Assembly: GCF_058153355.1 (NCBI RefSeq)
Contig: NZ_CM177019.1
Reading direction: 5' to 3' (one strand)
Length of the DNA: 64,000 nucleotides
The notes beneath the pieces were generated by a model. It had not been told where the DNA came from, did not search any database, and saw only the letters and a list, made by a program, of their open reading frames with translations. The translations under genes and the position numbers were made by a program. Positions 19,803 through 20,099 of this stretch are shown one piece after another (position 1 is the stretch's first letter; each line of letters starts with the position of its first letter).

Positions 19803-20099
19803 AGTTCTAAAAGCAGTTTTCAATGATAAATAAATGGCGATTTTTACAAAGAGAAAATAACGTAGATTGAAATAATATGTATTATTGATTGAGTAAACGG
19901 GATTATTCTTCACACTGCATCCATTTTGCTGTCACTACCAAAGTAAAAGGGGCTACGCTTTCACGTAACCCCTTGATTTATTTGATGAGTTTGCGGTGTC
20001 TGAACTGGTGCTGTAATTGGTTGAAATATTTCATCTAATGTCTGGTTCAACTTTCCTTAGCTGCTTGAAAGTTTTTTGATCTTACCCAGCAATAATAGG

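Follow-up and report, generated by a model that had tools for sequence, protein, structure and literature searches.

The stretch of DNA analysed here, 64,000 nucleotides long and referred to below as the window, is the ileY-ssrA region of E. coli, with 98.6% identity to the goat strain R32_14_1F. The question raised by this locus is what lies in the spacer between ypjCB (ORF at 18243-19802, plus strand) and the remnant of pinH, and whether that remnant and the following gene, ypjA (20739-25412, plus strand), are what is left of an older element. In E. coli K-12 (NC_000913.3) the far-end fragment of CP4-57 is annotated (psaA), and the spacer under study carries no feature of any kind; the literature on ypjA, pinH, and CP4-57 yielded nothing on the ypjCB-pin spacer. 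An earlier note, made from the sequence alone, had described a second junction-like sequence upstream of the pin remnant, homologous to the island end. We consider it likely that positions 19921 to 20089 are the fossil junction of an old integration at the 3' end of ssrA, which would be composed of a Fels-2-type terminator arm, the decayed last ~15 nt of ssrA, and ~90 nt of an island far-end arm.

The target shared by these integrations is the intact tmRNA gene ssrA (48819..49181, minus strand; Rfam tmRNA, 295.8 bits), which encodes the tag peptide ANDENYALAA according to ARAGORN and whose 3' end, seen on the plus strand, is TGGTGGAGCTGGCGGGAGTTGAACCC. On the other side, ileY is located at 17522-17597 (plus strand). 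The current island is CP4-57-like and extends from about 25575 to 48818. Its far end (25572..25685, plus strand) comprises a shortened core, TGG, followed by CTGGCGGAGTTTGAATTGG and an arm, with cbtA on the minus strand from 25724 onward. Its tyrosine integrase (47373..48614, minus strand) contains the Arm-DNA-bind_3, Phage_int_M, and Phage_integrase domains and is 85% identical to K-12 IntA, most of the differences being in the N-terminal arm-binding region. The window contains five exact copies of GGTGCCTA, all at the two ends of this island: two in the far-end arm (25645 and 25657) and three, one of them inverted, in the integrase-proximal arm (48629..48691). The chance expectation was 1.2 copies, and five were reached in none of 100 shuffles. 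At the matching positions CP4-57 has GGTCCYA/GGGCCTA repeats. Since GGTGCCTA is confined to the island ends, the arm-binding domain diverges from that of IntA, and CP4-57 has other repeats, we infer that these motifs are putative arm-type integrase sites that would define two island subtypes.

At the far-end core of the current island (25572-25579), TGG was observed in place of TGGTGGG, and in the near-identical goat strain (about 27563-27571 of its locus) this core was cut back further, to caatcagCTGGCGG. Judging from these sequences, the shortened core may lock the current island in place.

Pairwise alignment of 19950-20100 with 25540-25700 paired 19993-20077 with 25578-25674 at a local score of 38, which none of 500 dinucleotide shuffles reached (17.6 ± 2.9), so that the similarity stood above the background of AT-rich DNA; the reverse-strand score was 16. 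The global alignment gave 72% identity over 99 aligned positions, and the older sequence, hereafter the relic, has the same strand and order as the current junction. In a scan of the whole window the relic was the best non-self match, with a background of scores up to 30. Because that background left some doubt, a profile was built with nhmmer from only two Kosakonia island ends (L027 and L031), which are independent of the window. It matched the relic at 19986-20077 (E=5.8e-9, 32.9 bits; envelope 19983-20089), the orthologous K-12 spacer at E=1.1e-12, and the current island end at E=1.8e-27; the relic is 74% identical to the two Kosakonia ends. The junction-like sequence proposed in the earlier note is thus real, and its similarity to 25590-25680 held, with the correction that the homology begins at ~19983 rather than at ~20000. 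An Rfam search of 19850-20150 produced no match near any gathering score.

The relic can be divided into an exchange region and an island arm. The decayed exchange region with its core-proximal sequence (19983..20004, plus strand) reads TGATGAGTTTGCGGTGTCTGAA, for which the fresh form is TGGTGGGCTGGCGGAGTCTGAA and the ssrA 3' end is TGGTGGAGCTGGCGGGAGTTGAA. It starts at ~19983 with TGATGA in the window and TGGTGG in K-12, and here the relic reads TGATGAGTTTGCGGTGTCTGAACTGG in the window and TGGTGGGCTGGCAGTGACTGAATTGG in K-12. In a hand alignment of the ssrA 3' end with 19983-20011, 19 of 29 positions matched, the K-12 copy being visibly closer, and this ssrA-like fragment has the orientation of the intact gene. 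The K-12 copy, TGGTGGGCTGGCAGTGACTGAA, has the same one-base deletion and the same CTGAATTGGT as fresh island ends. The core-proximal sequence of the subtype, GCTGGCGGAGTCTGAATTGGTTGTGTAAT, was recognisable in decayed form (GTTTGCGGTGTCTGAACTGGTGCTGTAAT in the window, GCTGGCAGTGACTGAATTGGTGCTGTAAT in K-12). The remainder (20005..20089, plus strand) derives from the far-end arm of an island that belongs to the CP4-57 family and, within it, to the GGTGCCTA-arm subtype. The earlier note had also stated that the motifs were lacking, which was correct for one 12-nt unit, GGTGCCTATTTA; the second unit was kept in degenerate form at 20060-20067 (plus strand; nhmmer and MAFFT), as GCTGCTTG in the window and GCTGCCTG in K-12, and is the sole surviving arm-type unit. 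The pair of direct GGTGCCTA repeats at 12-nt spacing is therefore not present in the relic. The arrangement is that of a displaced-fragment (attR-type) junction, with a fragment of the target, element-end sequence inside, and the former downstream flank outside. No cognate integrase gene was found between the relic and the next junction, as 20000-25575 holds only the serine-invertase fragment and ypjA. The CbtA/CbeA/RadC module and P4-type integrase expected of the old island were likewise absent there, the arm abutting the invertase fragment at ~20090-20150.

TGGTGGGCTGGCGGAGTCTGAATTGG stands at the fresh far ends of K-12, Citrobacter, and three Kosakonia genomes alike, although four different left flanks precede it, which indicates that everything to the right of GCTGGCGG is island DNA. 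Taken at the level of sequence, strand exchange would fall within the last ~15 nt of ssrA. A crossover strictly inside TGGTGG was considered and dropped, as some IMG/VR contigs contain hybrids that join the one-base deletion to ssrA-type sequence (GGGAGTTGAA). Such hybrids agree with the loss of one U from ssrA reported for the excision of the Shewanella island CP4So (PMC5148205).

Three such IMG/VR contigs (L036, L070, and L082) have displaced ssrA fragments beside a 158-bp arm described below, with the CP4-57-type one-base deletion in otherwise ssrA-type sequence (TGGTGGGCTGGCGGGAGTTGAA); these hybrids are possibly footprints of an earlier island excision, the altered ssrA having later been re-targeted by another element. 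At least six further junction types were seen to abut ssrA fragments of 13 nt, ~24-28 nt, or ~45-52 nt, including those of Proteus terrae (L017) and Kosakonia oryziphila (L022), some with arms bearing GTGGACGTAAAGTGGACAT repeats. The differing fragment lengths suggest that several integrase families use different points in the ssrA 3' end.

The relic was present in 3,182 of 5,426 complete E. coli genomes, at a median of one place per genome and mostly at 90-95% identity; the window and K-12 copies are 92% identical. An undecayed end of the GGTGCCTA subtype was found at ≥80% query coverage in only 21 of the same genomes. Since the relic is widespread and the undecayed end rare, the relic is old and was not copied from the present island. 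A chimeric query for the empty site, in which ypjCB and the hairpin to its right are joined to intact ssrA, had no full match in the 5,426 genomes. Some matches to this query extended 15-24 nt into its ssrA part and were considered as better-preserved copies; on alignment they proved to be the same decayed sequence.

Two explanations that would deprive the relic of its significance were weighed against these data. That AT-rich intergenic sequences resemble each other by chance can be given practically no credence: background local-alignment scores within the window do come as high as 30 against the 38 observed, but the shuffles never attained this score, the independent profile was significant in both the window and K-12, and the match directly adjoins a homologue of the ssrA terminator. 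It is hardly more credible that the end of the current island was recently duplicated, or copied by gene conversion, in this strain. Such an origin would agree with the identical arm subtype of the relic and the current end, yet it would leave unexplained why ~3,180 genomes carry the relic at 90-95% identity, among them K-12, whose island is of the other subtype, why the fresh end of the GGTGCCTA subtype is rare, and why the relic and the current end are just 72% identical.

To the left of the exchange region lies an arm (19921..19982) which, from its phage matches, is homologous to the ssrA-proximal attP arm of Fels-2-like (P2-family) phages. It includes an orphaned terminator hairpin in the sense orientation of ssrA (19947..19974, minus strand), with a 12-pair stem and a TTTTACTTTGG tail and a folding energy of -22.1 kcal/mol (z -5.4) on the minus strand and -15.6 kcal/mol on the plus strand. 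Positions 19921-19996 matched the attP regions of Fels-2, SopEPhi, RE-2010, 500465-1, and Cartapus at 81-90% identity, as they did those of related Klebsiella, Yersinia, and Cronobacter phages, and the counterpart of the arm in Fels-2 is annotated as attP. The same hairpin stands directly 3' of intact ssrA in ETEC-2265 and RE-2010; in ETEC-2265, where a P2-like prophage is present, the DNA directly 3' of intact ssrA is nearly identical to 19930-19982. The left arm is thus the 3' flank that ssrA had when the old island integrated. As to its source, the right end of the RE-2010 prophage was 88% identical over 77 nt. This prophage has 84-bp repeats, hairpin included, at both ends, and its left end, which carries the host-side repeat, matched only from 19945. 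The 24 nt at 19921-19944 therefore match the phage-specific arm outside the repeat, which favours a prophage origin of the left arm, and we regard such an origin as probable.

The exact 24-mer of the hairpin, GGGGCTACGYTTTCACGTAACCCC (19947-19970 of the window; loci L008-L031), was also found directly 3' of ssrA in several Enterobacterales and 3' of several tRNA genes in Betaproteobacteria (Rhodoferax and other Comamonadaceae, Chitinimonas, Nitrosomonadales, and Allopusillimonas), in Spongiibacter, and in one Desulfovibrio MAG. It is accompanied by the conserved edges CAAAGAAAAA and TTGATTT, and to its left are mixed genes (a restriction enzyme, a helicase, and ordinary chromosomal genes). The 24-mer hairpin has the appearance of a portable terminator module that attachment-site arms carry in different bacterial classes.

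To the right of the relic is the pinH remnant (20151..20321, plus strand), a piece from the interior of a phage-type serine DNA invertase, interrupted by an in-frame stop. It covers positions 43-100 of the 145 of the Pfam Resolvase profile (E=1.5e-9), is 74-82% identical in nucleotide sequence to myovirus invertases, and reaches 79-86% with invertases of IMG/VR prophage contigs. The island arm relic ends by ~20090, the invertase fragment follows, and this is cut off again at ~20321, so that it is truncated at both ends. Beyond ypjA lies a 158-bp ssrA flank (25421..25574), the host-side arm of the current island junction, which is homologous to the attP arm of the phages LLS, Ayreon, and phiNP. 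It is 87% identical to LLS over 155 nt, and in that phage the sequence adjoins an annotated tmRNA pseudogene and attP. The 158-bp arm was present in at least 120 IMG/VR contigs. Of these, 17 lack ypjA and have, 2.2-4.5 kb left of the arm, an invertase 75-86% identical to the pin fragment; its orientation is the same in 16 contigs, and a complete ssrA follows the arm in 6. One contig (L083) has the order baseplate, tail fibre, assembly protein, invertase, two cargo genes, arm, ssrA, smpB. In order and orientation, and roughly in spacing, the pin fragment and the 158-bp arm agree with the right end of an LLS/Ayreon-like prophage, and the stretch between them had no match to those contigs. The fragment and the arm accordingly resemble the remains of the right end of a third element, which would be an LLS/Ayreon-like prophage. 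ypjA occupies the cargo position of such a prophage and may be phage cargo or a later arrival.

In IAI39 (L004, 10240-18507), ypjA is truncated by an IS3-family element, after which there are tape-measure, baseplate, and YmfQ genes. This tail module is similar in type to the invertase-bearing prophage of L083, which suggests a separate prophage integration downstream of ypjA. The 158 bp flank ssrA in every E. coli looked at, including the island-free TUM2826 (L006, 21507-21664), and have a counterpart at L032, 3501-3655. With 87% identity to the attP arm of the free phages LLS, Ayreon, and phiNP, this flank implies that E. coli tmRNA terminators are held in common with phage DNA, whichever the direction of transfer.

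TUM2826 represents a short haplotype, marked by a 333-bp spacer (L006, 21174-21506), that was detected in 1,104 of the 5,426 genomes, with the 158 bp beside ssrA. In TUM2826, the one such genome examined, the order is glaH, the 333-bp spacer, the 158-bp arm, and intact ssrA, without ileY, ypjCB, relic, pin, ypjA, or island. The 333-bp spacer has no match in the window, and in TUM2826 it stands in place of ~10.8 kb comprising the amylase gene, ileY, ypjCB, the relic, pin, and ypjA. The haplotype may be the ancestral state or a deletion. Two sequences in this spacer that resembled the relic by eye were rejected, as they were not significant in shuffles or against the profile (E=44 and 81).

Two further explanations concern not whether the relic is a junction but what lies on either side of it. 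Possibly, though on the tentative side, the hairpin arm belonged to the E. coli lineage from the start, as the native terminator of ssrA flanked by an equally native ypjCB, and was captured by Fels-2-like phages without any such prophage ever having occupied the site. No phage gene is left on that side of the hairpin: P2-type genes (ogr and D) are absent beside the left arm, where ypjCB is found instead, and no match to YpjCB was obtained with tblastn in 50,697 phage records, a result that also spoke against YpjCB as a phage moron. In addition, the RE-2010 lysogen has the hairpin in both of its 84-bp repeats, so that a Salmonella host flank had it as well. Against a native terminator, the match continues for 24 nt beyond the repeat and includes decayed GTCGCCA/GCCGCCA motifs that are repeated in phage arms, and the exact 24-mer occurs sporadically among species and beside many different tRNA genes, as expected of mobile DNA. 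The second explanation assumes one older island only, which would have had the relic as its far end and reached to the ssrA fragment at ~25575, the pinH remnant and ypjA being what survives of its body. The block indeed fills exactly the interval from the relic to the next junction and is correctly oriented, and it is absent from TUM2826, whose short glaH-ssrA haplotype is common. We nevertheless consider a single older island unlikely: the pin fragment is a phage-type invertase with both ends cut, the 158 bp are unlike the integrase-side arm of CP4-57-type islands and resemble an LLS-like attP arm, the series of invertase, cargo, arm, and ssrA is the standard right end of the LLS-like phage family, and the 158 bp persist in TUM2826 without the block. 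The pinH/ypjA block is probably not the body of the old island and combines, as a mosaic, pieces of at least two more eroded elements. Of the earlier proposal, in which an older tandem element had left the pinH remnant and ypjA behind, an older junction of the same orientation and the stacking of elements at ssrA are thus retained, and the block as the body of that element is given up on account of the doubly cut invertase and the LLS type of the 158-bp arm. It would be natural to take pinH and ypjA for debris of CP4-57 or of a single older island, and that view is hereby corrected.

Element integration at the tmRNA gene is reportedly the subject of a 2003 article by Williams, 'Traffic at the tmRNA gene'. 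Among known junctions, attR of CP4-57 in E. coli K-12 (the 14-nt pseudogene psaA) has the same core-proximal sequence, TGGTGGGCTGGC.G.G.CTGAATTGGT..TGTAA, on the same strand and in the same position relative to ssrA, next to an arm with repeats ending in CTAAAAG. The relic differs from it in having arm repeats of the GGTGCCTA type rather than GGTCCYA, and in being decayed, cut off after ~90 nt, without an island behind it, and unannotated in NC_000913.3. When one genome per species was searched for the 24-mer of the hairpin, a match was found in Citrobacter sp. Awk 4 (NZ_JANEWG010000061.1, locus L015), in which, as in the relic, a Fels-2-type arm with its hairpin is joined at TGGTGG to a CP4-57-family far end. 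The junction there is undecayed and consists of ccattttgccgccactaccaaag, the hairpin, TGGTGG, and GCTGGCGGAGTCTGAATTGG. On one side are P2 gpD, gpU, and an ORF in the tape-measure position (no Pfam hit), and on the other are CbtA, CbeA, and RadC. Unlike the relic, this locus still has both elements, and its island is of the GGTCC-arm subtype; in two Kosakonia genomes the hairpin is joined to far ends of the GGTGCCTA subtype. The Citrobacter locus is the undecayed form of the architecture implied by the relic.

Tandem arrays at tRNA and tmRNA genes were described with Islander: each island end is recognised by a fragment displaced from the target, no target is more enriched than the tmRNA gene, and older elements are pushed outward as new ones integrate (PMC4383910). 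A tandem member there requires its own integrase and fragment (PMC4383910), whereas the relic lacks an integrase as well as a clean fragment and would therefore be missed by Islander-type pipelines. CP4So of Shewanella oneidensis is a P4-like island at ssrA with non-identical attL and attR, and its excision leaves ssrA without one U (PMC5148205). The loss of one U matches the one-base difference between the island far ends and ssrA at the present locus; CP4So differs from the relic in belonging to another genus and in being an active element.

From the position of each element in the array, the outermost being taken as the oldest, the order of events was inferred as follows. The hairpin arm would have been the former 3' flank of ssrA, most likely derived from a Fels-2-like prophage. 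A CP4-57-like island would then have entered the ssrA terminus and split the hairpin from ssrA, after which an LLS/Ayreon-like phage would have integrated nearer to ssrA, making the 158-bp arm the new flank. Deletions would have removed nearly all of these elements and joined what was left of the island arm to a piece from inside the invertase, and in this strain a new island of the same subtype would have integrated again. The layers now present are the Fels-2-type arm; the CP4-57-family arm stump; a deletion joint; the invertase fragment, ypjA, and the LLS-type arm; the current island; and ssrA. Of the old island body, no integrase, CbtA/CbeA module, or second ssrA fragment survives in the window, and a search of the window for other ssrA fragments or for Fels-2 or LLS far-side arms gave none, the sole extra match being a generic resemblance to the T-arm of ileY. 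Mechanistically this is the ordinary, already known traffic of tyrosine integrases at the tmRNA gene (PMC4383910), and the relic is a real but ordinary kind of genomic fossil, one scar layer among several at this gene.

On this history, the ileY-ssrA interval of most non-B2 E. coli, including K-12, would have been built up by at least four integrations, one after another, at a single tmRNA gene, and the unannotated spacer from ypjB/ypjCB to pinH would record two of them. The 'native' 3' flank of E. coli ssrA, terminators included, is itself sequence that phage attP arms share. The value of these findings lies mainly in annotation and genome history, and the known working of such elements is unchanged.

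With its mutated core, its single degenerate arm site, and no cognate integrase-side partner, the relic is, as far as its sequence indicates, most likely inert. It is highly improbable, though conceivable, that the site is not wholly dead where it is less decayed, as in the K-12 copy, which has kept TGGTGG and GCTGGC, and that an incoming integrase of the GGTGCCTA subtype could pair it with the ssrA-side junction. If so, the stretch from the relic to ssrA, including the ypjA autotransporter gene, might occasionally be excised or mobilised as a composite element, and old scars would be latent outer boundaries for gene mobilisation.

Elsewhere in the window, the Rfam family naRNA4 (CssrE), a repeat-derived nucleoid-associated RNA family, matched positions 9211-9287 on the minus strand with 71.1 bits against a gathering score of 59.5.
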